IMG/VR virus record: IMGVR_UViG_3300044608_002890
From: a virus
DNA length: 64,000 bases
Strand: one strand, 5' to 3'
The notes under the pieces were generated by a model that worked only from the letters and a program-made list of their open reading frames with translations, did not search any database and had not been told where the DNA came from. The translations under genes and the position numbers were made by a program. Shown one piece after another: positions 41,631 to 62,953 of this stretch (the stretch's first letter is position 1; the number at the start of each line of letters is the position of its first letter).

Positions 41631-42091
41631 CACAACCATCATCGTTGTTCTGCAAATACATCAAATTCTCCAATGGCGACAACATTGTGTGTCTGACCGA
41701 TGATAACTGCGATGATCTTGGAAATTTACGCAGCATCGTAGTCATGGAACCCATGAGCGTTGTTCCCATACGCATACCTAGATTTGGTAAACTCATGGAA
41801 ACCTATGTATTGCATCCCTGGTTGCCCTTGACTGATGAGAAGGTAGTTGAAATAAGCACTGGCAGCATCATCAGTGCTGTTGAAGCTCGTAATTCTTTCA
41901 GGGAACAATACGAGCAATTCATAGAACAACAAAACCAATCTCCGGACATTGAAGAAAATCAAGAACTTGAAATCGAAGAAGACCTATCACGCGCACAAGA
42001 ACTTTTGAAAACACTTGCCACAACCGAACACGAGGAAGATGATGACAACGACGACGGACACTGGAATCCAACCAGTAGAACCCTCCACTAA
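41627..42091 (+). CDS. hypothetical protein (conserved between uvsW and gp55)
   Basis: YIKFSNGDNIVC..PWLPLTDEKV..acidic tail ending RTLH; ATGA overlap with uvsW. Confidence 0.65.
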   Translation: MTQPSSLFCKYIKFSNGDNIVCLTDDNCDDLGNLRSIVVMEPMSVVPIRIPRFGKLMETYVLHPWLPLTDEKVVEISTGSIISAVEARNSFREQYEQFIEQQNQSPDIEENQELEIEEDLSRAQELLKTLATTEHEEDDDNDDGHWNPTSRTLH

Positions 42092-42632
42092 AAAAGCCAA
42101 TGCACATTATGTTGACAACAAGAAATTCTATGATGCTCTTGTTGACTACAGAAACCAAGTCATAGCTGCATTGAGCGAAGGGCGTGAAAAACCTCAGATT
42201 AGCAATTACCTAGGCGATTGTTTCATAAAGATTGCCACGCATTTGAGCTACAAGGCAAACTTCATTAACTATACCTTTAAAGATGACATGATCAGCGACG
42301 GCATAGAAAATTGTCTGGCGGCTGCTGATAAATTTGATCCCACAAAAAGCACCAATCCTTTTGCCTATTATACGCAGATCGTTTACTTTGCCTTTATTCG
42401 AAGAATTCAGAAGGAAAAGAAACAGCAAGCCACCAAATACAAGATCATAGAAAATCTGGATCTAGAAGATCTTTTGAACAACGAAACTGATTTAAATGAA
42501 TTCAATAACCAGTTTCTTGACTACATGAAGAAACAATTGGATCAGGTAGACATTGAAAAGCGCATCATCAAGAAACCAAAAAATAATGTTTTGGCAGAAG
42601 AAATAGATACACCCATTGACAACGACAACTAA
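42039..42632 (+). CDS. gp55: late sigma factor gp55
   Basis: HYVDNKKFY..YLGDCFIKIATHLSYKANFINYT..MISDGIENC..FDPTKSTNPFAYYTQI..AFIRRIQKEKKQ. Start set at ATG 42039 after a GAGG RBS. Confidence 0.96.
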   Translation: MMTTTTDTGIQPVEPSTKKANAHYVDNKKFYDALVDYRNQVIAALSEGREKPQISNYLGDCFIKIATHLSYKANFINYTFKDDMISDGIENCLAAADKFDPTKSTNPFAYYTQIVYFAFIRRIQKEKKQQATKYKIIENLDLEDLLNNETDLNEFNNQFLDYMKKQLDQVDIEKRIIKKPKNNVLAEEIDTPIDNDN

Positions 42633-42644
42633 ATATACTACAAT
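42616..42644 (+). promoter_or_regulatory. sigma70-type promoter (TTGACA-17 bp-TACAAT) with an overlapping late-like ACTAAATA, upstream of queE
   Basis: TTGACA 42616-21, TACAAT 42639-44, ACTAAATA 42628-35, AGGAG RBS before ATG 42668. Confidence 0.7.
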
Positions 42645-42667
42645 TCAGTATATTCAGGAGATATATT

Positions 42668-43513
42668 ATGAGCAAGATTAAAATATCAGAATTATTCTAT
42701 AGCATTCAAGGTGAAGGTCGATTCATGGGTGTGCCCAGTGTGTTCTTGAGAACCTTTGGATGTAATTTTACCTGTGATGGCTTTGGCATGCCCCGAGGAG
42801 AAAAAAGTGACGAGCGAGAAATCATTGCACAACATGCGGATCAGTACAAAAATTATAAATCTTTGCCTCTGGTTACTACAGGTTGTGATAGTTACGCTAG
42901 TTGGGATGTTAGGTTCAAGCATCTTAGCCCTGTTGTGTCTGTTGATGTTATTGTTGATGCCATTCTACATATGCTACCTCATGGCAAGTGGACAAGTGAG
43001 CATCTCGTTATTACAGGAGGAGAACCACTGCTTGGGTGGCAAAGGTCGTATCCTGATCTCCTCTCGCACCCCGATATGGTCAATCTTCAAGAACTCACAT
43101 TCGAGACCAACGGAACCCAAAAACTAGAACCTAAATTTTCTGAATATCTCAAGACTCATTGGCGCAAGGGCTGGGATCGACTTACTTTCAGTGTGAGTCC
43201 CAAACTAAGTGTCAGTGGTGAGAAATGGTCGGATGCCATCAAGCCCGAAATAATCATGCAGTATCAGGAACATGGGTTTGTATATCTGAAGTTTGTTGTA
43301 GCCACCGAAGATGATGTCGCCGAAGCATCCCAGGCAGTTCAGGAATATGTTGATGCAGGGTTTACGGGTCCTGTGTACCTCATGCCCGTAGGTGGTGTTG
43401 AATCAGTTTATGCCATGAACAATAAAAATGTCGCGCTCATGGCCATGAAGAAAGGCTGGCGATATTCAGACAGACTTCAGGTGCCATTGTTTAAGAATGA
43501 ATGGGGTACCTGA
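42668..43513 (+). CDS. queE: 7-carboxy-7-deazaguanine synthase (radical SAM)
   Basis: ISELFYSIQGEG..VFLRTFGCNFTC..GCDS..ITGGEPLL..ETNGT..SPKL..LMPVG..SDRLQ. Confidence 0.92.
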   Translation: MSKIKISELFYSIQGEGRFMGVPSVFLRTFGCNFTCDGFGMPRGEKSDEREIIAQHADQYKNYKSLPLVTTGCDSYASWDVRFKHLSPVVSVDVIVDAILHMLPHGKWTSEHLVITGGEPLLGWQRSYPDLLSHPDMVNLQELTFETNGTQKLEPKFSEYLKTHWRKGWDRLTFSVSPKLSVSGEKWSDAIKPEIIMQYQEHGFVYLKFVVATEDDVAEASQAVQEYVDAGFTGPVYLMPVGGVESVYAMNNKNVALMAMKKGWRYSDRLQVPLFKNEWGT

Positions 43514-43650
43514 TGCAACGTTTTCCGAGTTACTGTTGCCAAAAGTGTGGAGAACATATAGGTTGGTTAGGCAGATTTTTTAACGCTCTTTTACCCGGGT
43601 GGCACAAGTGTCCACCAACTGAAAGAGATTCAAACAATTGGGGTATTTAA
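43513..43650 (+). CDS. 45-aa Cys/His-rich micro-protein (possible Zn finger)
   Basis: MQRFPSYCCQKCGEHIGWLGRFFNALLPGWHKCPPTERDSNNWGI*. Coupled to queE by TGATG and to folE by TAATG. Not in the ORF track. Confidence 0.6.
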   Translation: MQRFPSYCCQKCGEHIGWLGRFFNALLPGWHKCPPTERDSNNWGI

Positions 43651-44384
43651 TGAGTAATAAACTAGTAGAACAAGCACCATATCATCCAGGCTACGAAGGT
43701 GCTGTGTTTGGTCGTCCCATGAGTGAAGTCATCCGTGAACGCATTCAACAAGGGCAGGCAAGATTTTTCGCCAATGACAACATTTCTCCATTTATTCATG
43801 ATGAAGAAGAAATCGATCGGTTGGTAGATGAAGTAGCCGATAAGTTTCAAGGCGTATTACGCAGTCTCATCATTGATACCAGCAACGATCATAACACGCA
43901 AGATACTGCACGTCGTGTAGCCAAGATGTTTGTTCGTGAAACATTCAGTGGTCGATATGCCAATCCACCCAAGGTAACTGCTTTTCCTAACGTAACAGAA
44001 TACGATCAGCTTTATGTCACAGGTCCTATCACTATTCGGAGCACTTGCGCGCATCATTTCCAAAATATTGTTGGCAGGGCTTATATTGGTGTTTTTCCTG
44101 GTCGCAATGTTATTGGGCTTAGTAAGTTTAATCGTATAACCGATTGGATTGCTAGCCGCCCACAGATCCAGGAAGAAATGACCGTACAGATTGCCGATGC
44201 CATTGAGCGCGAAACCGAAGCCGATGGTGTAGCAGTATTGATTCAAGCCGAGCATCATTGCATGACTCATCGTGGAGTCAAAGAGCATGAATCAGACATG
44301 ACCACCAGTGTCATGCGTGGCAAGTTCCGTGACGACCATGCCCTCAAGCAGGAATTTTTCAGCATTGTTGGAAAGATGAAATGA
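43650..44384 (+). CDS. folE: GTP cyclohydrolase I
   Basis: TARRVAKMF..IRSTCAHH..IGLSKFNR..RPQIQEEMT..HHCMTHRGV. Start moved to ATG 43650. Confidence 0.95.
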   Translation: MSNKLVEQAPYHPGYEGAVFGRPMSEVIRERIQQGQARFFANDNISPFIHDEEEIDRLVDEVADKFQGVLRSLIIDTSNDHNTQDTARRVAKMFVRETFSGRYANPPKVTAFPNVTEYDQLYVTGPITIRSTCAHHFQNIVGRAYIGVFPGRNVIGLSKFNRITDWIASRPQIQEEMTVQIADAIERETEADGVAVLIQAEHHCMTHRGVKEHESDMTTSVMRGKFRDDHALKQEFFSIVGKMK

Positions 44385-44884
44385 CGCAAGTCATGATTGA
44401 CCTAGAAACGCTAAGTACGCAATACAATGCCACCATACTTAGCATAGGCGCCGTAAAGTTCCAGGATCAAAGTATCCTGGATACTTTTTACGTAAACATA
44501 GATCCGGCTTCGTGCAAACAAGCCGGTCTGCATGTGGAACGTAAGACCATAGAATGGTGGAGCAAGCAAAACGCCGAAGCCCGCAAAGCCATCATGAAGG
44601 ACCAACGGTCATTGACAGATGCGCTCAAAGCATTTAGAATCTGGTATGGTAGCCAAAGCGTACCAACCTGGGGCAACGGAGCAGCATTTGATCTGGTCAT
44701 CATGACCAGCGCATTTCGCAGCATCGATACCGAACCTCCCTGGAAGCCCTGGGAAGAACGCTGCTACAGAACCATCAACGCCATTGTAAAGATACCGCAA
44801 GATGAACGGCAAGGAACATACCATAATGCACTTGATGATGCTCTGCACCAGACACGTCATCTCATGAAGATTCTAGGAAGTTAA
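44381..44884 (+). CDS. DEDDh 3'-5' exonuclease (DUF5051/Rv2179c-like)
   Basis: MIDLETL..ILSIGAV..WGNGAAFD..RCYRT..HNALDDA. Confidence 0.85.
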   Translation: MTQVMIDLETLSTQYNATILSIGAVKFQDQSILDTFYVNIDPASCKQAGLHVERKTIEWWSKQNAEARKAIMKDQRSLTDALKAFRIWYGSQSVPTWGNGAAFDLVIMTSAFRSIDTEPPWKPWEERCYRTINAIVKIPQDERQGTYHNALDDALHQTRHLMKILGS

Positions 44885-44885
44885 C

Positions 44886-46175
44886 ATGTACGAATACGTA
44901 GCCAGTGGTACCAGCTATTTCAAGCTCATGTACCAGGAAAGTTATAGACGAGAGAATCTCGAAGTCTTTGAAAAGACCTTTGCCAGTCTCAATGGACAGC
45001 ATAAGCACAACATCAGTCTATTGTACAATGCCTTTACGGAATCCAGGACCGGTCCACGCATCAGAGAAAACTATGGATCAATGATTCATAGTGTGCATGC
45101 AGACTCCGGTGGCTTGCAGGTCATCACTCTAGGCAAGCAGATTACCCCAGAGCTCAAAGAGCAGGTCTATGCCAATCAGGCTCTGAATTCCACCATTGCC
45201 ATGTGCTTTGACATGATTCCAGTATCTACCCGAAGTGGCGATCGCAGTGGTCGATTGGATTTAGAAAATCGTTATTTTGATCATGACAAGCTGGAAGCCT
45301 GTGCACGTGAGACCGGAAAGAACCTAAGACGTCAGATTGACCATTTCGATGAGAAAAAGAGTCAGGCTCGCCCCATGCTCATTGCACAGGGCAACTGTTA
45401 TGACACCTACATGCGTTGGGTGGACTATATTGTTCAAGAATTAACTCCCTATCACATAAGTCGCATCGGCGGCATAGCCATGGGAGCTGCGGCTCTGGGC
45501 AAAGGTCCTCTGGAGGACATCAAGCGAGCATTTTACTTTACCAAGTTGCCCATTGAACTACAGAGTCCGCACATGCACTTGTTGGGCGTGGGCAGTGTTT
45601 ATAGACTGTTGCCCAACATCATATTCTTTCAGAACGGACTATACGAAGGCGTTGAACTAAGCTATGACAGCACAACGCATACCAGCGGAGTAACGCAGGG
45701 TCGTTATTACTTGACTGGTGATAGAGTCATCAATGGCAAGTATCGTACCAGCGAATATCAGTTGTCGTTCACCAGAACCTTTGACGATAACTATAGAATC
45801 GTCTGGGAAGATATCTGCGCAATCTTTCCGTTCATGTCTCGTTACAGTCTCAACACCTTTTATGAAGTTCTTCAGATCAGCGCTCGTGATTACGAAGCCA
45901 AACATGGCAGCATAGATCCCAGCATTCAGATCTATATTGCCTATGTCAGTGCCTGCATCAAGAACTTCATGCGGCACGTAGAGCATGTTACTGAGAGTCG
46001 TGAAAATCTCATAGACTTTGCTCGCGGTGATGACAAGAATGCGTTTCATTTTCTATACGAAGTACAAAGCACCGATGATTTCAATCATTGGCTAAACAAC
46101 ATAGGCAAGACCATTGATAGTGAACCCGTAGCTGTCTCACAATCAAGCGTCGATTTAATGGAGATGATGTCATGA
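44886..46175 (+). CDS. dpdA: TGT-superfamily guanine transglycosylase, DpdA-like (probable DNA 7-deazaguanine insertase)
   Basis: DSGGLQ, AMCFD, IAQG, HLLGVG and SYDSTT match the TGT/DpdA catalytic motifs. No CxCxxC zinc site, unlike tRNA TGTs. Embedded in Que genes. Confidence 0.75.
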   Translation: MYEYVASGTSYFKLMYQESYRRENLEVFEKTFASLNGQHKHNISLLYNAFTESRTGPRIRENYGSMIHSVHADSGGLQVITLGKQITPELKEQVYANQALNSTIAMCFDMIPVSTRSGDRSGRLDLENRYFDHDKLEACARETGKNLRRQIDHFDEKKSQARPMLIAQGNCYDTYMRWVDYIVQELTPYHISRIGGIAMGAAALGKGPLEDIKRAFYFTKLPIELQSPHMHLLGVGSVYRLLPNIIFFQNGLYEGVELSYDSTTHTSGVTQGRYYLTGDRVINGKYRTSEYQLSFTRTFDDNYRIVWEDICAIFPFMSRYSLNTFYEVLQISARDYEAKHGSIDPSIQIYIAYVSACIKNFMRHVEHVTESRENLIDFARGDDKNAFHFLYEVQSTDDFNHWLNNIGKTIDSEPVAVSQSSVDLMEMMS

Positions 46176-46576
46176 ATATCCGTAGATGGATCGAAGTAAG
46201 TTTTCAGAAAGAAGGTATACACAAGTATCCTGCAGCAGCCGAAGATCCCAAACTAGCTACTGGCGGTTGGGATGATGTTAGTTTCCTGGCAAATCCACAT
46301 CGTCACATGTTCCATTTCAATGTTAGGCTCGAAGTAGAACACAACGATCGCGATGTTGAATTCATTCAGTTCAAGCGCTGGCTGGAGAGGCTGTATTCAC
46401 AGGGTACGCTGGAGCTTGATTATCACAGTTGTGAAATGATGGCCGAAGAACTAATCGAACAAATCATGACGACCTATCCAAATCGTGACATTGAGGTTCG
46501 AGTATTCGAAGATGGTGAAAATGGCGCCATACTGACTGCCAGTCGCGATCGTCAGTGGAGAATTGTTGAACTATGA
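46172..46576 (+). CDS. QueD-like T-fold protein, DpdL-like (putative CDG decarboxylase)
   Basis: EGIHKYP..FLANPHRHMFHF carries the LxxxHRHxF signature I recall for DpdL. Also DRDVEFIQFKR, SCEMMAE and EDGENGA. Lacks the QueD catalytic Cys. Confidence 0.7.
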   Translation: MNIRRWIEVSFQKEGIHKYPAAAEDPKLATGGWDDVSFLANPHRHMFHFNVRLEVEHNDRDVEFIQFKRWLERLYSQGTLELDYHSCEMMAEELIEQIMTTYPNRDIEVRVFEDGENGAILTASRDRQWRIVEL

Positions 46577-46944
46577 TAGCCGAACCAATGACCGATGACT
46601 TTAGCATCGAAGGACATAAGGTTGTTAGAGTTGCCAGGAATTGGGGGCACTACAAAGTATTGCAGGAGTATCCTGGCGTAAAGGTCAAAGAACTTCTGGT
46701 TGAGCCCGGTCAGAGTCTTAGCCTGCAACGGCATTTCCACAGAGCAGAATTTTGGATTGTAGTTGATGGTAACGGTATGCTAGAACTAGACAATAAAAAA
46801 CTAGAGCTCAAGCCACAGACAACCGTTACCATTAAACCACTCCAATGGCACAAATTGTGGAACACCAGCAATCGACTTTTACGCCTAGTTGAGATACAAT
46901 ATGGGTCTGAATGTGACGAAGCCGATATTGAAAGGAAAACATGA
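46573..46944 (+). CDS. cupin, type II mannose-6-phosphate isomerase C-terminal domain-like
   Basis: RNWGHYKVL..VKELLVEPGQSLSLQRHFHRAEFWIVVDG..WHKLWN..EIQYG..EADIER. Confidence 0.85.
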   Translation: MIAEPMTDDFSIEGHKVVRVARNWGHYKVLQEYPGVKVKELLVEPGQSLSLQRHFHRAEFWIVVDGNGMLELDNKKLELKPQTTVTIKPLQWHKLWNTSNRLLRLVEIQYGSECDEADIERKT

Positions 46945-48020
46945 AGAACTTTTATATTGTGGACATTGAGCCCTTGGATAATAGGTACACCAAGCAATGG
47001 CGTACCTGGATTCCTAAGGTCGCCCAAGAGTATCTGGGCGAAGGGTTCAAAGTGGTGAACATAGCCGGCGAAGAAGGTGAATACAAGAAGCCCGAACCCG
47101 GCGCATTTTTTGACTTTTTAGGTACTTGCAAATACAAGGCCAGTCAGACCATTCGTATTGCCGAGCTCTTTGAGCAAGGCAAAGTTCGGGATGGTGATAT
47201 CTTCTACTTTACTGATGCCTGGAATCAGACCATTCACTTCCTGAAGTACATGGCTGAACTCAAAGACATACAAATCTATACTGCAGGTATCTGGCATGCT
47301 GGTGCCTATGATCCTACAGACATCTTGGGTGTTAAGATCAAGAATAAGCCCTGGGTCTATGGTTTTGAAGCATCTAGTTATTATGCTTTTGACATTAACT
47401 TCTTTGGTTCACATTACAATAAAAACCTTTTCTTGCAAACACTAGGGCTGGAATCCCAAGAAAGAGTACTAGGTAGATGTGTAAGTCCTGGAGCCTATTG
47501 TCTGGAATGGATTCGTGACCTTAAGAACGACCATGCCAAAGAGAACATAGTTGTATTTCCGCATCGGCTGAATTACGACAAAGCACCCTATGTGTTCGAT
47601 GAAATTGCTGCTGAAGTGCAAAAGACCAGACCTGATATTCGGTTCATCAAGACACAAGAACAGAACTTCAGCAAAGAAGAATACTATGACTTCCTCAAGA
47701 CCTGCAAGGTAATCTTTAGTGCCAACAAGCACGAAAATCTTGGCATTGGTACCTTCGAAGCCATGTGCTCGGGTTGCATTCCCTTGTTGCCTGACAAACT
47801 AAGCTATCATGAAATGTATGATCCAGTTTTCAAATATGAAGTTCAAGATAACCTTTATGACGTTGGTGCCAACAGAGAATATCTAGCACGTCGCATCATT
47901 TACTATGTTGACTACTATGAAAATTATAGAGCCGACTTAAATAATAACATCGATAGGCTTCATGACACCTATTTCAGTGGTCGTAACATGTTTGAAATTA
48001 TGAAAAGGACCTTTGTATGA
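46941..48020 (+). CDS. GT4-family glycosyltransferase, GTDC1/DUF3524-like
   Basis: VVFPHRLNYDKAP..SKEEYYDFL..IFSANKHENLGIGTFEAMCSGCIPLLPDKLSYHEM, containing the GT4 ExxGxxxxEA motif. Confidence 0.85.
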   Translation: MKNFYIVDIEPLDNRYTKQWRTWIPKVAQEYLGEGFKVVNIAGEEGEYKKPEPGAFFDFLGTCKYKASQTIRIAELFEQGKVRDGDIFYFTDAWNQTIHFLKYMAELKDIQIYTAGIWHAGAYDPTDILGVKIKNKPWVYGFEASSYYAFDINFFGSHYNKNLFLQTLGLESQERVLGRCVSPGAYCLEWIRDLKNDHAKENIVVFPHRLNYDKAPYVFDEIAAEVQKTRPDIRFIKTQEQNFSKEEYYDFLKTCKVIFSANKHENLGIGTFEAMCSGCIPLLPDKLSYHEMYDPVFKYEVQDNLYDVGANREYLARRIIYYVDYYENYRADLNNNIDRLHDTYFSGRNMFEIMKRTFV

Positions 48021-49036
48021 GAGCAGTAATTACGGGCGTGACCGGCCAGGATGGAGCCTATCTAGCCAAACTACTTCTAGAGAAAAACTATAAGGTCTAT
48101 GGAGCCTATAGGCGTACAAGTACTCCAAACTTTCATCGCATGCAAGAATTGAACATTCTTGATCATGAAAATTTAAAACTTGTAGAATGCGATTTGACAG
48201 ATCTAGGAAGTTGCATAAGACTTTTGGATCAGGCCAAACCCAAAGAGGTCTATAATCTTGCAGCACAGAGTTTTGTGGGAGCTAGCTTCAACAGTCCAGC
48301 AACCACAACACTCATCAATACCATGGGCCCGTTGAATTTGCTGGAAGCCATTCGTACCCTGGATCGCAAGATTAAATTCTATCAGGCCAGCACCAGTGAA
48401 ATGTTTGGCAAAGTACAGACTGTACCACAGAACGAACATACGCCTTTCTATCCTCGCAGTCCCTATGGTGTCAGCAAACTCTATGGACATTGGATTACAG
48501 TTAATTATCGAGAAAGCTATGACATTCATGCCAACAGCGGCATCTTATTCAATCATGAAAGTCCCTTGCGCGGTCTGGAATTTGTAACCAGAAAAATTAC
48601 CGATGGCCTGGCTAGAATTCACAACAGGCAACAGCAGGTGCTTAAGTTAGGGTTCCTGGATGTCAAGCGAGATTGGGGGCACGCCGAAGATTATGTCCAT
48701 GCCATGTGGCTCATGCTCCAACAATCCCAACCACGAGACTTTGTTGTATCCACTGGAACACAATACAGTGTAAGGCAATTCTGTGAAGCCAGTGCACGTG
48801 CTCTGGATTATGACCTTATCTGGGAAGGCAGCGGTGTTGACGAAGTTGGCATCAATGCCAAGTCCGGCAAAGTAGTTATTCGCATTGATCCAGAATTCTA
48901 TCGTCCAGCCGAAGTAAATACCCTGTTGGGTGATAGTTCCGAAGCTCGAAAAGTCCTGGGCTGGATGCCCAAGCATACTTTTGATAGTATGGTTACCAGC
49001 ATGGTCGAAGCTGACCTTCGACGCACTGCTAAATAA
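48017..49036 (+). CDS. gmd: GDP-mannose 4,6-dehydratase
   Basis: ITGVTGQDGAYLA, YNLAAQSFV, FYQASTSEMFG, PRSPYGVSK, ILFNHESPLRG, FVTRKI, RDWGHAEDYV. Confidence 0.96.
   Translation: MRAVITGVTGQDGAYLAKLLLEKNYKVYGAYRRTSTPNFHRMQELNILDHENLKLVECDLTDLGSCIRLLDQAKPKEVYNLAAQSFVGASFNSPATTTLINTMGPLNLLEAIRTLDRKIKFYQASTSEMFGKVQTVPQNEHTPFYPRSPYGVSKLYGHWITVNYRESYDIHANSGILFNHESPLRGLEFVTRKITDGLARIHNRQQQVLKLGFLDVKRDWGHAEDYVHAMWLMLQQSQPRDFVVSTGTQYSVRQFCEASARALDYDLIWEGSGVDEVGINAKSGKVVIRIDPEFYRPAEVNTLLGDSSEARKVLGWMPKHTFDSMVTSMVEADLRRTAK
49029..49035 (+). promoter_or_regulatory. possible late promoter variant (CTAAATA) overlapping the gmd stop
   Basis: Matches the TAAATA core and would start transcription at the structured leader of queD. 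Confidence 0.4.
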
Positions 49037-49084
49037 CAGAAGCGGCCTTAAGACGCTCATCCCGCTCTATAAATTCTGCGTGTC
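49037..49084 (+). ncRNA. candidate cis-regulatory pseudoknot / riboswitch-like leader of queD-yhhQ
   Basis: AGCGG (49041-45) pairs with CCGCT (49062-66). An A-rich TATAAA linker follows, then GCGTGTC (49078-84), which can pair with loop GACGC (49052-56). CAGAA/TTCTG is an alternative pairing. Confidence 0.35.
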
Positions 49085-49110
49085 ATCAAACTTACTCCAA
49101 GAGGCAAGAG

Positions 49111-49617
49111 ATGGCTTTAATAAATACATCACATCCTTACAAATACGTTAGTACCAAAGAATATCATGATGCATTTCCCTGCGCATATCGCCAATGGCGA
49201 GCCGACAGTCATTGCAACATGATTCATGGTTATAGTTTTAGCATGAAATTTTACTTTGGTACCGATGATCTCGATGTTCGTAACTGGGCAGCTGATTATG
49301 GCGGCCTAAAAGAACTAAAAAAGATTCTCGAAGACCAATTCGATCATACCCTGTTGGTTGCCGAAGATGATCCTGAACTAGAAACCTTTAAACTCCTGCA
49401 AGCCAAGAAGATGGCTAAACTAACTATACTACCAAGACTGGGTTGTGAAGGTTTGGCTGATATGTTATATAAGTATGTCAATGGTGTTTATATACCAGAT
49501 ATGTGGGGCCTGGGCGAACACAATCGCTTATGGTGTTTCCGAGTAGAAGTTCGCGAAACACAAGCCAACATGGCCTATCGTGAAGGTCACAGACATTGGA
49601 ACGAACAACTACTCTAA
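49111..49617 (+). CDS. queD: QueD-like 6-carboxy-tetrahydropterin synthase (divergent)
   Basis: CAYRQWRADSHCNMIHGYS..DYGGLKELK..FDHTLLVAEDDP..GCEGLA..EVRETQANMA. Confidence 0.8.
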   Translation: MALINTSHPYKYVSTKEYHDAFPCAYRQWRADSHCNMIHGYSFSMKFYFGTDDLDVRNWAADYGGLKELKKILEDQFDHTLLVAEDDPELETFKLLQAKKMAKLTILPRLGCEGLADMLYKYVNGVYIPDMWGLGEHNRLWCFRVEVRETQANMAYREGHRHWNEQLL

Positions 49618-49626
49618 GGAACCATT

Positions 49627-50250
49627 ATGCTCAGTAAATTATTAGACGGTGTAGATCGAAGTTTAGTATATAAGTTGATGGCAGCTCATGTCATCATCAT
49701 AGCCATTAGCAATTACATAGTTCAGTTCAAGATCGATGTCCTGGGGCATCCTCTGGCTCTGGCTGCGTTTACTTTCCCTCTGGTTGTTGTTCTTACTGAC
49801 CTAACAGTTAGGTTGCTGGGCAAACAGACCGGTAGAGCTGTCATTGGTCTGGCGTTCATCCCTGCTATCCTGGTCAGCATGGCTGTTGTTAAACTAGGCG
49901 GCGCACCAGACTCAGTGGCATTCAGAATTGGCTTGGGCAGTGGCATGGCCTATTTTGTAAGCAATCTGCTGGATGTCTATGTGTTCCAATACTTCAGAGA
50001 AAAGTATACATCATGGTGGATTGCTCCTGCTTTAAGTTGCATAGTCAGTACTTTTATTGACACCTATGTATTCTTCTTTACGGCCTTTGCCTATGGCGCC
50101 AACGAATTCATGGCAGCAAATTGGCACATTGTAGCGACCAACAATAGTTGGGCAAAGATTTTAGTCAGCCTCCTGGTCATTTTACCATCATATGGCATCT
50201 TGCTGAGCCATTTGCAAAAGAAATTGAGCCATGAGCAAGCAACAGCATAA
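49627..50250 (+). CDS. yhhQ: YhhQ / VUT-family preQ0 (queuosine precursor) transporter
   Basis: Multi-TM protein: ISNYIVQF..AAFTFPLVVVLTDLTVRLLG..FRIGLGSGMAYFVSNLLDVYVF..STFIDTYVFF. Confidence 0.88.
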   Translation: MLSKLLDGVDRSLVYKLMAAHVIIIAISNYIVQFKIDVLGHPLALAAFTFPLVVVLTDLTVRLLGKQTGRAVIGLAFIPAILVSMAVVKLGGAPDSVAFRIGLGSGMAYFVSNLLDVYVFQYFREKYTSWWIAPALSCIVSTFIDTYVFFFTAFAYGANEFMAANWHIVATNNSWAKILVSLLVILPSYGILLSHLQKKLSHEQATA

Positions 50251-50584
50251 CGTTAAATGGGAACGTTACGACACCATTAACTTTGTTGCTGACCAAGAAG
50301 TTTTGGTCAGCAATACCCGTGAGTACGTTGATCGTGCCTATGATTTTTGTCGTAACAATAACATAGACAATCCTTCGGCCATCATAAGTTGTGCAATCAT
50401 GACGGCTGCTTGGGTGTATAGCAACATGGGCTATGTTCTGAGCAAAGGCATCATACCAGACATTCTGGGTCTCAAAGAATATGAACCCAATCCCAATGCC
50501 GTCATACATCTAAGCAAGAAGTACCAGGATATGTCGCACGATGAATTGCTGGCATGTGTCATAGAAGCTTTTTATGAAGGATAA
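50231..50584 (+). CDS. hypothetical protein
   Basis: 117-aa ORF overlapping the end of yhhQ; no recognised motif. Confidence 0.55.
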   Translation: MSKQQHNVKWERYDTINFVADQEVLVSNTREYVDRAYDFCRNNNIDNPSAIISCAIMTAAWVYSNMGYVLSKGIIPDILGLKEYEPNPNAVIHLSKKYQDMSHDELLACVIEAFYEG

Positions 50585-50589
50585 AGATC

Positions 50590-51762
50590 ATGAAAGTACT
50601 CGTAGTAGGTGCTGGTATTACGGGTGTGATGTTGGCATACTATGCCTACAAAAAGGGCTTTGATGTTACCATAGTAGACCAACACGGCATAGCTACCAAG
50701 TGTAGTTATGCCAACGGTGGTCAAATCAGTGTATGCAATAGTCAGGTTTGGAATACCTGGAGTAACTTGGCCAAAGCCATAACCTGGCTAGGTCGAGAAA
50801 ATGCTCCATTGTTGATTAGGCCTGATCTTGATCTAGAAAAATATTCTTGGCTCATGAAATTCTCCCGGGAAATCATCATGGGCACAGCCGATGTCAATAC
50901 AGCTCGCACCATAGATCTTGGCCTACAGAGTCGCAAACTGTATGCTGAAATCATGCTGGAAATAGACAAACTTGAACAGCTAAGCAACATAGAATACAAT
51001 GGCATCCTGCACATCTATACTGATCTTGCAGACTACAAACAGGCTCTAAATCGAACTACATTCTTCAAAAATCTAGGACTGTCCTGGCAAGACGTGCCAG
51101 CCAGCAAACTTAGCAAAATAGAACCTTCGCTCATAGGGTTCGGCAGTAACTTGATGGGTGGAATTTTTACGCCCGAAGATTTTACTGGTGACATACATAG
51201 ATTCTGTGTGCATGTTCTTACCTGGCTACAGGCCAAGGGCGTAAGATACATACCTGCCATGATAAGCACCAAAGATGAATTGCTGGATAAGTTTCCAAGC
51301 AACTTTTACATATTGAGCACTGGAACCGAACTTCAACAGCAGGCTCAATGGTTTGATACTAATTTGGATATCTATCCAGTCAAAGGATATAGCCTAACCA
51401 TTGAAGCTCCAGCCAACAACATACCTAAGGTCAGCCTGCTTGATGAAAAGGCCAAGATCGTAAGCAGCAGATTGGGCAATAGATTTCGTGTAGCCGGTAC
51501 CGCAGAGTTTACTGGGCACAATGATGCCATTAATTCAAATCGTCTTAAACCTTTGTATGCATGGGTGCAAAAGAACTTTTCGCTTATAGATACTAGTAAG
51601 GCCAAGGAATGGGCCTGTCTAAGACCCATGCGTCCCAACATGTTGCCTGTGTGGGGCAAATTCAAATCTAGTAGCAATGTATTTTATCATGGCGGTCATG
51701 GACATTTGGGCTGGACTCTGGCACCCGCAACTGCAAAGAATTTAATTGATCAACTATTATGA
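50590..51762 (+). CDS. FAD-dependent oxidoreductase, D-amino acid dehydrogenase (DadA)-like
   Basis: VVGAGITG dinucleotide-binding motif, SYANGG, PVKGYSLT, RVAGTAEF, WACLRPM, GHGHLGWTL. Confidence 0.88.
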   Translation: MKVLVVGAGITGVMLAYYAYKKGFDVTIVDQHGIATKCSYANGGQISVCNSQVWNTWSNLAKAITWLGRENAPLLIRPDLDLEKYSWLMKFSREIIMGTADVNTARTIDLGLQSRKLYAEIMLEIDKLEQLSNIEYNGILHIYTDLADYKQALNRTTFFKNLGLSWQDVPASKLSKIEPSLIGFGSNLMGGIFTPEDFTGDIHRFCVHVLTWLQAKGVRYIPAMISTKDELLDKFPSNFYILSTGTELQQQAQWFDTNLDIYPVKGYSLTIEAPANNIPKVSLLDEKAKIVSSRLGNRFRVAGTAEFTGHNDAINSNRLKPLYAWVQKNFSLIDTSKAKEWACLRPMRPNMLPVWGKFKSSSNVFYHGGHGHLGWTLAPATAKNLIDQLL

Positions 51763-59410: not shown

Positions 59411-60127
59411 ATGCAAAGTCTTAAGAATGATAAACATGTTCTGACGGTCATCACGCCCACCATTGGGCGTGATATTTTGGATCGTCAGATTGAGAGCATT
59501 GATGCACAGACCGTAGCCGGTCAAATTTTTCACCTCATCATGTGGGATGAAAAGCGAATCGATGCAGGCATAGACCCCATGTCCTACAACGGTCCCAATC
59601 GTTACAGCATGGTCTTGCCCTGGGGGTTGGGACGGTACAAAGGAGCTCCAGGATCTAGTTTGAGAGCCGTAGCACTCATGGCTGCTAATACTACTTGGGT
59701 AACATTCGCTGACGATGATGTAGTATGGCGACCGACGCATGCTGAAAGCATGCTTAGAGCTGCCAACGGCCATCATTGGGCCGCTTGTCTGCGTCACATC
59801 TATGCACCAGGATCAGGTACCAGATTCCAAGAACAAGGGCGTGGTGAATATCTGGGCATAGACAGATTTGAGAGTGTGGGCGATGATCCAAATCGCAACG
59901 TACCCTATGAAATGATAGATAATAATTGCCTGATGTTCAATCGCATTCTGGGTGTGCATGCTGCACATCTGTATCGCCTGATCGAAGGTCCTGGTGATGA
60001 CCGACACTTTTATGCCTTCATGAAGCAAAATGCCGGACCCTTGGCACGTACCAACGAAGCCACCATCGAACATACATGCCCAGACCATCTCATAGACTTC
60101 TTTAGTCAAAACTGCAGCAAGGAATAG
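59411..60127 (+). CDS. GT2-like glycosyltransferase
   Basis: LTVITPTIGR..WVTFADDD (DxD)..GDD. Confidence 0.75.
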   Translation: MQSLKNDKHVLTVITPTIGRDILDRQIESIDAQTVAGQIFHLIMWDEKRIDAGIDPMSYNGPNRYSMVLPWGLGRYKGAPGSSLRAVALMAANTTWVTFADDDVVWRPTHAESMLRAANGHHWAACLRHIYAPGSGTRFQEQGRGEYLGIDRFESVGDDPNRNVPYEMIDNNCLMFNRILGVHAAHLYRLIEGPGDDRHFYAFMKQNAGPLARTNEATIEHTCPDHLIDFFSQNCSKE

Positions 60128-60129
60128 AC

Positions 60130-60840
60130 ATGTCCAACAAATACATTTGCTATAGCTTCTGGGGAGAAGACGAGCGTTTCAGTCTAGGCGCAGTTAAAAA
60201 TGCCGAACTAGCTCGTACACATCTGCCAGACTGGCAGGTCATCATGTATCATGATGACACTGTTCCCACCAAGTATATTCGTATACTTAACAACATGAGT
60301 CATGTAGAGGTTCGCAACATAGCCACCATAGATCCAGGCTATAAGATGGTGCACGGAGCATTCTGGCGTTTCTTGCCCATGTTTGAACGCGAAGGCCATT
60401 TTATCATGCGAGACACCGACAGCCGACTGACCAAGCGTGAAGCAAGGGCCGTTGAAGAATGGGTGAGCTCGGATCGTACCTTTCATGTAATTCGCGATCA
60501 TGAAGCCCATTATGAATGGCCAGTATTGGCAGGCATGTGGGGCATCAAAGGTGTAGTACATCCTTTCTTTCATGAACAAATGAAAAAGTATTGGCTGGCC
60601 AACTTTTATACAGTTGACCAGGTTTATTTGGCACAGGTACTTTGGCCAGCAGTCCAGCAGAGTGTGCTGGTTCATGGCATGCGTGAAGGTGGTTGGTTTG
60701 CCGACACCAGAAAGAATGTTGGCTACAATTTTGTTGGTGAGGGTTGGTATGAAGATGACACACCAATCTATAGCTTTGACATGCCCAGCCGTAAGTTCAA
60801 CAAGGGGCAAGAGAAAAACGTCTATAATTCGAGTCTGTAA
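60130..60840 (+). CDS. conserved glycosyltransferase-like hypothetical protein
   Basis: ICYSFWG..GAVKNA..FWRFLP..RDTDSRL..EARAVEEW..HVIRDH..LAGMWG..DQVYL; lies in a glycan cluster. Confidence 0.55.
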   Translation: MSNKYICYSFWGEDERFSLGAVKNAELARTHLPDWQVIMYHDDTVPTKYIRILNNMSHVEVRNIATIDPGYKMVHGAFWRFLPMFEREGHFIMRDTDSRLTKREARAVEEWVSSDRTFHVIRDHEAHYEWPVLAGMWGIKGVVHPFFHEQMKKYWLANFYTVDQVYLAQVLWPAVQQSVLVHGMREGGWFADTRKNVGYNFVGEGWYEDDTPIYSFDMPSRKFNKGQEKNVYNSSL

Positions 60841-61529
60841 TGTTCAAAAGATTATTAGTCTACCATCATTTAGGTCTTGGTGACCATTTTATTTGCAACG
60901 CACTTGTACATCATTTTGCGGAAAACTTTGCCGAAGAAATATGGTTGCCAGTCAAAGAAGCTAATCTACCAACTGTCAAGCATCTCTATGAAGATCATGA
61001 AAACATCAAAATCATAAGTACTTCGGAAAATGAATATCATAAAGAGATTCTTGGTATAAATAACCTCAGCACCCAATACAATGTACCTTTGCTTAAAATT
61101 GGTTTCAATGGCGACAACAGCAAAGAATTTGATCGCTCATTCTATGACCAAGTTGGTTTGGATTTTGACCTTAGATGGGCCGGATTCAAAGCTCCGTATA
61201 ATGATCAATCAGCCATGGATTTCTACAATGAGATCATAGGCAATGGTGAGCCCTATGCTCTGGTTCATGATACTGGCAGCATAGGATCTTTCAATTTGAA
61301 TCTAGATACAAATCTACGCATCATTAAAATACAGGCTGGTCTCACCGACAGTCTTTTGAACTGGAAATCTATCATAGAAAATGCCGAAGAAATTCATTGC
61401 ATAGACAGCAGCGTAATTCATCTTGTTGATAGTCTTAGGGTTGGGGCTTCTAGGTTAGTATTTCATGATGTTGGTCGACCAAGTAAATTCAACTTATTTT
61501 ATGAGTGGGAGCGAAAGACATATAAATGA
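60840..61529 (+). CDS. GT-B-like glycosyltransferase-like hypothetical protein
   Basis: HHLGLGDHFICNALV..IIENAEEIHCIDSSVIHL resembles GT9-like GLGD and xDSS motifs. Confidence 0.5.
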   Translation: MFKRLLVYHHLGLGDHFICNALVHHFAENFAEEIWLPVKEANLPTVKHLYEDHENIKIISTSENEYHKEILGINNLSTQYNVPLLKIGFNGDNSKEFDRSFYDQVGLDFDLRWAGFKAPYNDQSAMDFYNEIIGNGEPYALVHDTGSIGSFNLNLDTNLRIIKIQAGLTDSLLNWKSIIENAEEIHCIDSSVIHLVDSLRVGASRLVFHDVGRPSKFNLFYEWERKTYK

Positions 61530-62248
61530 TGAACATTGTCATACCCATGGCCGGACTGGGCAGTAGATTTGCCGAAGCTGGTTTTAGTATCCCCAAGCCG
61601 CTGATTCCGGTCAATGGCGAAGCAATGATCAGCAAAGCAGTTAAAAGCCTAAACCTACAGGGCCAGTATTATTTTATACTGTCAAGTAATTCTTATACCA
61701 AGCACATAATAGAAGTACTTGAAAGCATCGTCAAAAAACCGCATTTTTGCATCATAGATTATGTTACAAACGGTCCAGCTTCCTCAGTGCAGTTGGTTAG
61801 CGAACATATAAATAATTCTGATGAACTAGTTGTTGCCAACTGTGACCAGATCATGACCTGGAACAGTGCAGCATTTTTACATAATGCCAGACTATACGAT
61901 GGTTGTTTAGTGACCTATCATTCGGATACTACTAAAAATAGTTATGCTAAACTCAATGCCAAGGGTCTAGTAACTGAAGTCCGAGAAAAACAAGTTATTA
62001 GTAACGTAAGTCTTAACGGTATCCACTATTGGAAGCAGGGTCGGTATTTTTGCGACTCATATGAAGCCATGGTCCAAAATAATGATACAGCACCTAATGG
62101 TGAGTTTTATGTAGGACCTTCGTACAACTATATGATTAGAAATAACAGGATAGTAGGTATCTATCATATTCCTAACGAACAACATCATCCAGTAGGTGTG
62201 CCCGATGATCTTAAAGCATATCTACAGTTTGAGAATAACACCTTATGA
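61526..62248 (+). CDS. sugar-phosphate nucleotidyltransferase-like protein (NTP_transferase fold)
   Basis: IVIPMAGLGSRF..PKPLI..TNGPA..ANCDQ..SYAK..EVREK..NGEFYVGPSYN. Confidence 0.85.
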   Translation: MMNIVIPMAGLGSRFAEAGFSIPKPLIPVNGEAMISKAVKSLNLQGQYYFILSSNSYTKHIIEVLESIVKKPHFCIIDYVTNGPASSVQLVSEHINNSDELVVANCDQIMTWNSAAFLHNARLYDGCLVTYHSDTTKNSYAKLNAKGLVTEVREKQVISNVSLNGIHYWKQGRYFCDSYEAMVQNNDTAPNGEFYVGPSYNYMIRNNRIVGIYHIPNEQHHPVGVPDDLKAYLQFENNTL

Positions 62249-62260
62249 AAGAAGGAGAAG

Positions 62261-62953
62261 ATGGCAACAGATCTTGAAAAAATTGAAGCGTTTTTAGTCT
62301 ATGAGGTTGGAATTTGTCCAACCAATGACAATCATTTTGGTGGCAATCCAGAAGCACAGGCACAGTTAAATTTAAAAATTCAACAGCGTCCAGCTGAGCT
62401 AGCCAATTTGATTTATTTTCTTTTTAACAGAAAAGCGGCCGGTGAAAAGCTAGACTATTATGCTGAGATAGGTGCCTGTTCTGGTGGTACTACATTCTCC
62501 ATAAACAAATTTTTAAACTTCAAAGAGTTGTTGATTATTGATGACGGTGGAGCTGAAGCCGTTCATTATATCAATGCACGTGGCAATCAACTAAGAAGTC
62601 AAAATCTAGGTACAATTCCTCGCATAGAAATCATAGGTTCCTCTGCTGAACAGCGTGTCATTGACATGAGCAAACATATAGCTAGCAAACAACTATATGA
62701 CATTCTTTTTATTGATGGTGATCATAGCTATGAAGGTGTAAAAAATGATACTATTAATTACCTATCCATAGTTAGGTCTGGCGGTTATGTAATTTTTCAT
62801 GACACTAACCACATCAAAGGCATCATGGATTGGATGCAAGAAATACCATCGAGAGTTCCTGAATTAGAATTTGTTAATAAATTTAGTTTTAAAGACTCAT
62901 ACACAGATAGATTTCCAACTGGTATAGGAATTACTATTTTCAGAAAGTCATAG
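62261..62953 (+). CDS. class I SAM methyltransferase (Methyltransf_24-like)
   Basis: AEIGACSGGT, DILFIDGDHSYEGVKND, GGYVIFHD. Confidence 0.85.
   Translation: MATDLEKIEAFLVYEVGICPTNDNHFGGNPEAQAQLNLKIQQRPAELANLIYFLFNRKAAGEKLDYYAEIGACSGGTTFSINKFLNFKELLIIDDGGAEAVHYINARGNQLRSQNLGTIPRIEIIGSSAEQRVIDMSKHIASKQLYDILFIDGDHSYEGVKNDTINYLSIVRSGGYVIFHDTNHIKGIMDWMQEIPSRVPELEFVNKFSFKDSYTDRFPTGIGITIFRKS

Follow-up and report, generated by a model that had tools for sequence, protein, structure and literature searches.

What does a glycosyltransferase (GT) do inside a phage operon for 7-deazaguanine? The question was raised by the viral record IMGVR_UViG_3300044608_002890 of IMG/VR, from which a stretch of 64,000 nucleotides, i.e., the window, was analyzed. 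The GT, named P0001, is encoded on the plus strand at 46941..48020, behind the genes of a DpdA-like DNA transglycosylase and DpdL. From its sequence, the gene block was predicted as a deazaguanine DNA-modification system with a built-in glycosyltransferase. We lean, with slightly better than even confidence, to the reading that the GT works with DpdA and adds a mannose-derived sugar to deazaguanine in DNA, its donor domain being kin to that of the queuosine mannosyltransferase QTMAN (GTDC1).

P0001 was assigned as a GT-B glycosyltransferase with a QTMAN-like donor domain. The open reading frame (ORF) gave a clean, stop-free translation of 359 aa, and the strings quoted in an earlier note, which had been made from the letters of this DNA alone, were recovered in it: residues 205-220 read VVFPHRLNYDKAPYVF and residues 243-292 read FSKEEYYDFLKTCKVIFSANKHENLGIGTFEAMCSGCIPLLPDKLSYHEM. 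The protein was divided into an N-domain (approximately residues 1-195) and a C-domain (approximately 196-359). Thirty-two relatives from the phage GT family were aligned (alignment A1). R209 and K214 of the FPHRxxxDK motif and E265 and E273 of the EX7E motif were invariant across these 32 sequences. The N-domain was also strongly conserved, including E10, R15-Y16-T17, W20, D92, W94, and H119-A120-G121. The AlphaFold2 model had a mean predicted local distance difference test (pLDDT) of 91 and a predicted template modeling score (pTM) of 0.88, and showed the GT-B fold of two Rossmann domains. P0001 is a GT4-like GT-B enzyme with intact donor-binding and catalytic motifs. In the best explanation of its sequence, it is predicted to be an active GT-B glycosyltransferase of the retaining type.

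Gene context is the strongest evidence for the link between the GT and DpdA. The GT family is very large and mostly viral. It gave 3110 matches in a 90%-clustered collection, and in a 50%-clustered library at least 579 representatives at E<=1e-30, 1478 at 1e-10, and 3351 at 1e-3. It was found on at least 589 IMG/VR contigs and at 35 loci in GTDB genomes. The neighboring genes of 118 fetched GT loci, including phages and bacterial chromosomes, were clustered. A DpdA-like transglycosylase was present in 109 of the 118 loci, usually one or two genes from the GT. Among the nine loci without it, eight were cut contigs, and Sinorhizobium phage Phosso was the sole full-context exception, although it was listed among the cultured phages with the pairing. 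DpdL homologs were found in 94 loci, usually as the adjacent gene, FolE in 79, and QueE in 57-62. The coupling to DpdA, which the earlier note had proposed, thus proved far stronger than could be known from this DNA, and it extends to bacterial chromosomes. The transglycosylases beside the GT are long, with a median of approximately 504 aa versus 259 aa in DpdA3 of Cellulophaga phage phiST. DpdL is the proposed, still unproven, decarboxylase of 7-carboxy-7-deazaguanine (CDG) in the pathway to dDG (2'-deoxy-7-deazaguanine); its signature is LxxxHRHxF (Cui, Hutinet et al., NAR 2023, PMC10516641). The signature was found in 87 of the 88 clustered DpdL members.

The pairing was listed for unrelated cultured phages, i.e., Acidovorax phage ACP17, the PA5oct group, Xanthomonas X1/BUDD, Burkholderia BCSR5, and Synechococcus BUCT-ZZ01. 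ACP17 has been named as a phage with dpdL and dpdA (PMC10516641). In BUCT-ZZ01 (L146, 3364-7518), two GT-like ORFs flank DpdA and DpdL: a 447-aa ORF resembling Glyco_trans_1_4 precedes DpdA, and a 388-aa ORF after DpdL is a divergent member of the GT family (hhalign, 99.1%), behind which lies the Rv2179c-type exonuclease that the window also has. In alphaproteobacterial chromosomes, the order was a YhhQ-like gene of the Vut_1 type directly before the GT, then the DpdA-like gene and a gene for a 585-aa protein. For the latter and for an 840-aa neighbor, no family was found. At these loci (L014-L036, e.g., Shimia ponticola, L019 7498-13477), the operon is adjoined by a two-component system, another GT4-like gene on the opposite strand, and often an integrase. 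It may represent a form of the system, bacterial or prophage-borne, that draws on salvaged bases.

Several other genes accompany the pair. A conserved 175-aa protein, 'c6', is encoded between the genes of DpdA and DpdL in 63 loci (e.g., L040 6775-7299) and is absent from the window; it gave no sequence match in Pfam, NCBIfam, or PDB. In marine T4-like phages (L040, L052, L098, and approximately 59 further viral loci), a phosphoribosyltransferase of the xanthine/guanine type (59 loci) and a HinT-like HIT protein (37 loci) were placed between the GT and FolE. The phosphoribosyltransferase may fit the salvage of guanine released by DpdA. Oxygenases dependent on 2-oxoglutarate and Fe(II) were found in some GT loci and not in the block of the window.

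The kinship of the GT was examined by profile comparison. The QTMAN reference set consisted of 26 bacterial proteins matching Pfam PF12038 (QTMAN_N, formerly DUF3524) over full length at E 1e-43 to 1e-62, and three of them are named 'DUF3524 domain-containing' or 'tRNA-queuosine alpha-mannosyltransferase' by NCBI and UniRef. All QTMAN comparisons concern these bacterial members, human GTDC1 being outside the set; 24 of the 26 formed alignment A2. The controls were all PDB chains and the 73 ORFs of 30 canonical GT4 loci, taken from five genomes. In hhalign, A1 matched A2 at 99.4% (E 5.3e-22, 280 columns), and a profile of 138 phage-family sequences matched QTMAN at 99.6% (E 2.5e-24). Against single sequences, A1 gave scores of 76-126 (probability 96.7-98.9%) for all 26 QTMAN proteins and a top score of 36 (probability 24%) for the 73 control ORFs, i.e., a complete separation. 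In hmmsearch, A1 recovered 26/26 QTMAN proteins at E 3e-17 to 6e-7, with the best PDB chain at 0.02 for the same database size, and matched none of the canonical GT4 control ORFs. In the reverse direction, A2 recovered every one of the 32 phage GTs, with E values between 1e-16 and 1e-9, whereas the best controls were a PDB chain at 8e-6 and an ORF from the 30 canonical GT4 loci at 1e-3. PimA and PimB', which are GT4 enzymes using GDP-mannose, did not match A1 at E<=1 among the PDB chains (hmmsearch), so the QTMAN signal is more than shared GDP-mannose binding. By these profiles, the QTMAN proteins are the nearest relatives of P0001 among PDB chains and the 30 sampled GT4 loci.

The similarity is carried by the donor domain. 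The C-domains alone matched at 99.7-99.8% (hhalign, E 2.6e-26 to 1.8e-27). In both families, which have the GT-B fold, HR-x3-DK-x-P in the donor domain replaces the usual GRL-x3-KG, and the motifs H-[ED]-x2-G-x4-EA and GC-x-P-x2-P-[DN]-[KR]-L-[SA]-Y-x-E are present. The consensus of bacterial QTMAN reads WNHRWEYDKxP and STALHDFQGLAxLEAxAxGCxPxxPDRLAYPE, and its pattern matches that of the human GTDC1 strings given in the earlier note. K214 of P0001 was aligned with the invariant K199 of bacterial QTMAN, the lysine of WNHRWEYDK. QTMAN takes mannose from GDP-mannose and attaches it, as an alpha-glycoside, to queuosine at the allylic hydroxyl, and in human QTMAN the exchange K296A is reported to abolish mannosyl-queuosine (manQ) (preprint 10.64898/2026.06.28.735034). 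From the motif, K214 and the lysine of bacterial QTMAN are probably equivalent to human K296.

The earlier note had claimed a likeness to GTDC1 beyond the generic GT4 motif, and this likeness was confirmed with the bacterial QTMAN proteins, which outscored all controls in hhalign. The affinity to QTMAN/DUF3524 over lipopolysaccharide-type and canonical GT4 clades was specific and reciprocal. Best neighbors in unrelated GT4 clades, the outcome named in the note as refuting it, were thus not obtained. In a maximum-likelihood tree, the 17 controls were split from QTMAN together with the phage and alphaproteobacterial GTs, with a Shimodaira-Hasegawa-like approximate likelihood ratio test (SH-aLRT) value of 99. 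The tree is consistent with a sister relation of QTMAN and phage GTs, though with three groups and long branches it is no proof of it. By the defining domain of Pfam, P0001 is not a QTMAN member, and it is best described, from its profile matches, as a sister family with a QTMAN-type donor domain.

The two families also share a context. Both are tied to a 7-deazaguanine that is placed in nucleic acid by an enzyme of the tRNA-guanine transglycosylase (TGT) family, and a mannose-type donor is likely common to both. However, the partner of QTMAN is tRNA TGT, whereas the partner of the phage GT is the DNA transglycosylase DpdA. The acceptor of QTMAN is queuosine-34 of tRNA-Asp. QTMAN mannosylates a cyclopentenediol, which the bases available to the phage GT, i.e., CDG and 7-deazaguanine (DG), do not have. 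Among 401 sampled genomes of one phylum, 28 encoded bacterial QTMAN_N/DUF3524 proteins, which were also found in a metagenome-assembled genome of Marinimicrobia. Their genes showed no conserved neighbor within 3.5-kb loci, and we know of no reported function for them.

Which sugar would be transferred? In 50 of the 118 loci, the GT is accompanied by a phosphomannose isomerase (PMI) cupin (26), a short-chain dehydrogenase/reductase (SDR) of the epimerase/dehydratase/reductase type (26), a eukaryotic-type phosphomannomutase (PMM) (15), or a pair of GFO/IDH and alcohol dehydrogenase (13). A nucleoside diphosphate (NDP)-sugar dehydrogenase was found in 11 loci. The operon of L181, whose GT is 54% identical, includes a PMM and a nucleotidyltransferase-PMI fusion, the latter overlapping the start of the GT gene. 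Gmd is the next gene after the GT in the window, in a 97% relative recovered from three samples, and in relatives with 66% and 59% identical GTs on other backbones. Gmd was considered as a general partner of the GT and rejected, i.e., tblastn found it in 0 of the 118 more distant GT loci, and it is a lineage-specific add-on. From the recurrence of PMI, PMM, Gmd, and nucleotidyltransferase genes beside the GT, we infer for the family a donor of the GDP-mannose type that is tailored in individual lineages. In the window phage, the Gmd product or a 6-deoxyhexose made from it is a candidate sugar.

The window is part of a T4-like aquatic myovirus, with all long ORFs on the plus strand. Among its products are UvsW, UvsY, a gp55-like sigma factor, gp46/gp47, a neck protein, gp15, and a prohead protease, and the gp46 shares 49% identity with its counterpart in Methylophilales phage Melnitz. 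When the island was compared with GenBank phages by megablast, no match was obtained. The block at 42668-50250 consists of co-oriented genes, including deazaguanine and sugar functions. It begins with a QueE-like radical S-adenosylmethionine enzyme, i.e., 7-carboxy-7-deazaguanine synthase (42668..43513), which had a weak match to Pfam Radical_SAM and whose homologs are annotated as QueE in ACP17, PAC2, and BUCT-ZZ01. FolE, GTP cyclohydrolase I, was predicted at 43638..44384 (Pfam GTP_cyclohydroI, E 1e-49). A 3'-5' exonuclease similar to Rv2179c is at 44381..44884 (PF16473, E 7e-47); its homologs were found in 13 of the 118 loci and adjoin the GT in BUCT-ZZ01.

The DpdA-like DNA guanine transglycosylase, of DpdA3 type and 429 aa, was predicted at 44886..46175 (Pfam TGT, E 7e-4; TIGR00449, E 1e-6; phrog_10773, E 4e-94). 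It is 32% identical to ACP17 DpdA over full length. In the alignment of DpdA-like proteins (A3), D73-S74-G75-G76 and Q78 were nearly invariant (>=90%) and D261 was invariant, which correspond to the TGT motif DSGGxQ and the second aspartate. DpdL, a QueD paralog of 134 aa and proposed CDG decarboxylase, is at 46172..46576 (phrog_17812, E 2e-34). Its LANPHRHMF fits the DpdL signature, and it is 37% identical to CGPG_00067 of phiST. A stand-alone type II PMI cupin is at 46573..46944 (Pfam MannoseP_isomer, E 2e-25; TIGR01479, positions 355-460 of 467). The GT is followed by Gmd, GDP-mannose 4,6-dehydratase, at 48017..49036 (TIGR01472, E 3e-134, above cut-off). Four ATGA start/stop overlaps join DpdA, DpdL, the PMI cupin, the GT, and Gmd.

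QueD, 6-carboxytetrahydropterin synthase, at 49111..49617 (Pfam PTPS, E 7e-15) and a YhhQ/Vut_1 transporter of the queuosine-precursor transporter family at 49627..50250 (Pfam Vut_1, E 2e-20) complete the block. A DAO-family oxidoreductase using flavin adenine dinucleotide (50590-51762) closes it just before gp47 and is kept in the 97% relative. All of these genes are on the plus strand. No QueC was found among the window ORFs scanned, and no SGGxDS PP-loop was found in any window ORF of >=120 aa. Rfam gave no match at E<=1 on 42000-51000, and no preQ1 riboswitch was recognizable before queD (49037-49110). No reductase or aminotransferase was found within 42668-50250. A second sugar module at 59411-62953 encodes on the same strand a GT2-like ORF (59411-60127), a sugar-phosphate nucleotidyltransferase (61526-62248), and an ORF similar to Methyltransf_24/rhamnosyl-O-methyltransferase (62261-62953). 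This module could supply or tailor an NDP-sugar.

The closest characterized system is that of phiST, in which dDG has been measured (PMC10516641). Like the window, the phiST system has FolE, QueD, QueE, DpdL, and a transglycosylase of the DpdA family, and no QueC. It has no GT of the P0001 family, and an AAA_18 kinase-like ORF is placed between its DpdL and DpdA. In the window, by comparison, the GT and sugar-supply genes are built into the operon, and DpdA has 429 aa versus 259 aa. Because phiST has dDG without the GT, the GT is an addition to the dDG pathway and no requirement for it.

The other comparison is with phage T4, whose enzymes AGT and BGT glucosylate 5-hydroxymethylcytosine already in DNA. 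Like the proposed role of P0001, these are phage GT-B enzymes that transfer a sugar from an NDP-sugar to a modified DNA base for protection from restriction. The acceptor of T4 is a pyrimidine hydroxymethyl group and the donor is UDP-glucose, whereas P0001 is predicted to use a purine analog and probably a GDP-sugar. No sequence match of AGT or BGT (GT72/GT63) to A1 was obtained by hmmsearch of the PDB chains.

A pathway can be proposed from these comparisons. FolE, QueD, and QueE would make CDG, and DpdL would convert it; the decarboxylation to 7-deazaguanine is a proposed, unproven step. DpdA would then swap guanine in phage DNA for the deazaguanine base. The GT would transfer a mannose-derived sugar from a GDP-sugar to the inserted base, in analogy to QTMAN on queuosine and the T4 enzymes on hydroxymethylcytosine. 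In the window phage, the PMI cupin would feed mannose-6-phosphate to the host GDP-mannose pathway, and the translationally coupled Gmd would turn GDP-mannose into GDP-4-keto-6-deoxymannose; the GT may therefore transfer a 6-deoxyhexose. The phage would be expected to gain a bulkier mark, able to block restriction enzymes and nucleases of other kinds. The fold, the intact motifs, the kinship of the donor domain with QTMAN, and the synteny with DpdA, DpdL, and sugar genes are observed. The donor's identity, the use of DNA as acceptor, the sequence of the steps, and the role in the phage are inferred from them.

A number of results weigh against this reading. The Pfam Glycos_transf_1 match of P0001 was below the gathering cut-off (23.8 bits versus 26.4, E 3.5e-5) and covered residues 244-336 only, and scans of Pfam, NCBIfam, PHROGs, and PADLOC gave nothing beyond it. 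The N-domains alone were not significantly similar to those of QTMAN in hhalign (E 0.047, and 0.017 with the 138-sequence profile, probability 1-3%). PF12038 was absent from P0001 even at E<=10 (hmmscan, Pfam), and three phage genomes carrying the GT had no match to it. Within GT-B enzymes, binding of the nucleotide sugar is mainly a task of the C-domain, and binding of the acceptor a task of the N-domain. Because the N-domain is not recognizable as QTMAN_N, the sequence gives no sign that a deazaguanine is the acceptor; the likeness confined to the C-domain suggests a common origin and probably a common donor type, and is silent on a common acceptor. The resemblance to QTMAN in the earlier note therefore stands for the donor domain and is not detectable in the acceptor domain. 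Its proposal that deazaguanine glycosylation is an ancient activity of the family was not borne out, as only the donor domain is detectably common.

The structural comparison did not favor QTMAN either. In Foldseek and VIA-align searches of PDB, the P0001 model matched generic retaining enzymes of GT4, GT5, and GT20, and no solved QTMAN was among the matches. The best match was sucrose-phosphate synthase 6kih (Z 25.6, rmsd, i.e., root mean square deviation, 3.2 over 317 residues), followed by BshA 6n1x (Z 25.1, VIA-align), PimB' (Z 22.5), and PimA (Z 21.5). T4 alpha-glucosyltransferase 1y6f was similar at the fold level only (Z 17.5, rank 43). Canonical GT4 enzymes, i.e., BshA, MshA, PimA/PimB', WaaG, and sucrose-phosphate synthase, share with P0001 the fold, EX7E, and the Arg/Lys phosphate binders (Z 20-25.6), and have a Gly-rich N-terminal loop where the P0001 family has E-P-L-D-x-R-Y-T-K-Q-W instead. 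When a bacterial QTMAN model (pLDDT 89) was compared with viral models, the ACP17 GT was only at rank 13. Fold searches thus do not single out QTMAN, and the solved GT4 structures are about equally distant. In the ESM Atlas (features, with all and named clusters, and structure), P0001 retrieved only its own viral family and no QTMAN_N cluster, and the best 150 matches of A1 among clustered protein representatives were all of its own family.

The context and the chemistry also set limits. Over half of the 118 loci have no sugar gene within 8 kb, and the absence of Gmd from the more distant loci counts on the same side. The Rhodobacterales loci have no DpdL, FolE, or QueE, and the base may differ between contexts. 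Neither 7-deazaguanine nor CDG has a side-chain hydroxyl; if DpdL yields 7-deazaguanine, there is no ordinary O-acceptor. Taken as a whole, the observation of the earlier note was confirmed and its interpretation is partly supported.

Four other explanations were weighed. The GT may glycosylate the free 7-deazaguanine base or a nucleotide form, and DpdA may insert the sugar-bearing base, as eukaryotic TGT inserts queuine. The long DpdA proteins beside the GT could have a larger pocket or extra domains, and the phosphoribosyltransferase and HIT protein hint at chemistry at the level of the base or nucleotide. In addition, ACP17 DpdL and DpdA gave no dDG in a heterologous host, E. coli, and the authors considered that further enzymes may be needed (PMC10516641). 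However, the known analogs, i.e., QTMAN on tRNA and AGT/BGT on DNA, act after insertion, and the phosphoribosyltransferase is equally explained by salvage of the guanine released by DpdA. No sequence feature tells glycosylation of the free base from glycosylation in DNA, and we consider the former unlikely. Slightly less probable again is a target unrelated to deazaguanine, e.g., a glycan of the host envelope, a protein of phage or host, or queuosine of host tRNA, the GT being near DpdA only through a shared early or replication block. GT4-like enzymes of phages often modify surface glycans, another sugar module is present in the window at 59.4-63 kb, nothing about the acceptor can be read from the N-domain, and a nearby sugar-supply gene is missing from over half of the loci. 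Nevertheless, the pairing with DpdA is kept across T4-like phages, PA5oct-type jumbo phages, and Busanvirus, and also in alphaproteobacterial chromosomes, in a different setting and often with overlapping frames. Chance placement in a replication module would not yield 109 of 118 loci.

The remaining two explanations are much weaker. FolE and two proteins of the PTPS fold, QueD and DpdL, flank the GT, and a pterin intermediate of these enzymes could be the acceptor, as for the cyanobacterial GT4 tetrahydrobiopterin alpha-glucosyltransferase BGluT, which is among the structural matches (Z 20.8, Foldseek rank 27). This is very improbable: BGluT is no closer than dozens of GT4 structures and has no sequence match, the GT-DpdA pair persists without FolE/PTPS genes in the Rhodobacterales loci, and QueE and DpdA point to deazapurines and DNA. 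Least probable of all is that P0001 is a non-catalytic partner of DpdA, e.g., in DNA handling, which has retained the glycosyltransferase fold. Bacterial DpdA is reported to need the partner DpdB for insertion (PMC10164549). In P0001, however, the phosphate-binding Arg/Lys and both EX7E glutamates are invariant in 32 diverse relatives, and sugar-activation genes recur beside the GT. Glycosylation of deazaguanine already inserted in DNA by DpdA is preferred.

Extended to the family, this preferred reading has a little less than an even chance, in our estimate: the DNA of these phages, some alphaproteobacterial islands, PA5oct, and ACP17 would contain 7-deazaguanine glycosylated by a sister of QTMAN that acts on DNA. 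As neither 7-deazaguanine nor CDG has a hydroxyl, an unusual chemical linkage would be expected, i.e., an N-, C-, or acyl-glycoside, or one formed after an unrecognized hydroxylation. Lineages would differ in the sugar (mannose, 6-deoxyhexose, uronic acid), as a trait of an arms race. Of the eight 7-deazaguanine derivatives known from phage DNA, none bears a sugar (PMC10516641). No description of glycosylated deazaguanine in DNA was found in the literature, within a search of incomplete coverage. The sugar-bearing DNA bases that we know of, e.g., glucosyl-hydroxymethylcytosine, are pyrimidines. PA5oct, which carries the GT, has DNA that resists G-site restriction enzymes, and its G modification is chemically undefined (PMC12191111).

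The proposal is directly testable in the cultured phages PA5oct, ACP17, Xanthomonas X1/BUDD, and Burkholderia BCSR5. If it is true, DNA hypermodification would gain a new class, sugar-bearing deazaguanine. This would matter for restriction, for nucleases that depend on modification, e.g., the END nucleases, for CRISPR, and when environmental viromes are sequenced. QTMAN, a tRNA enzyme of animals, would then be tied in its origin to a wider group of deazaguanine-linked glycosyltransferases.

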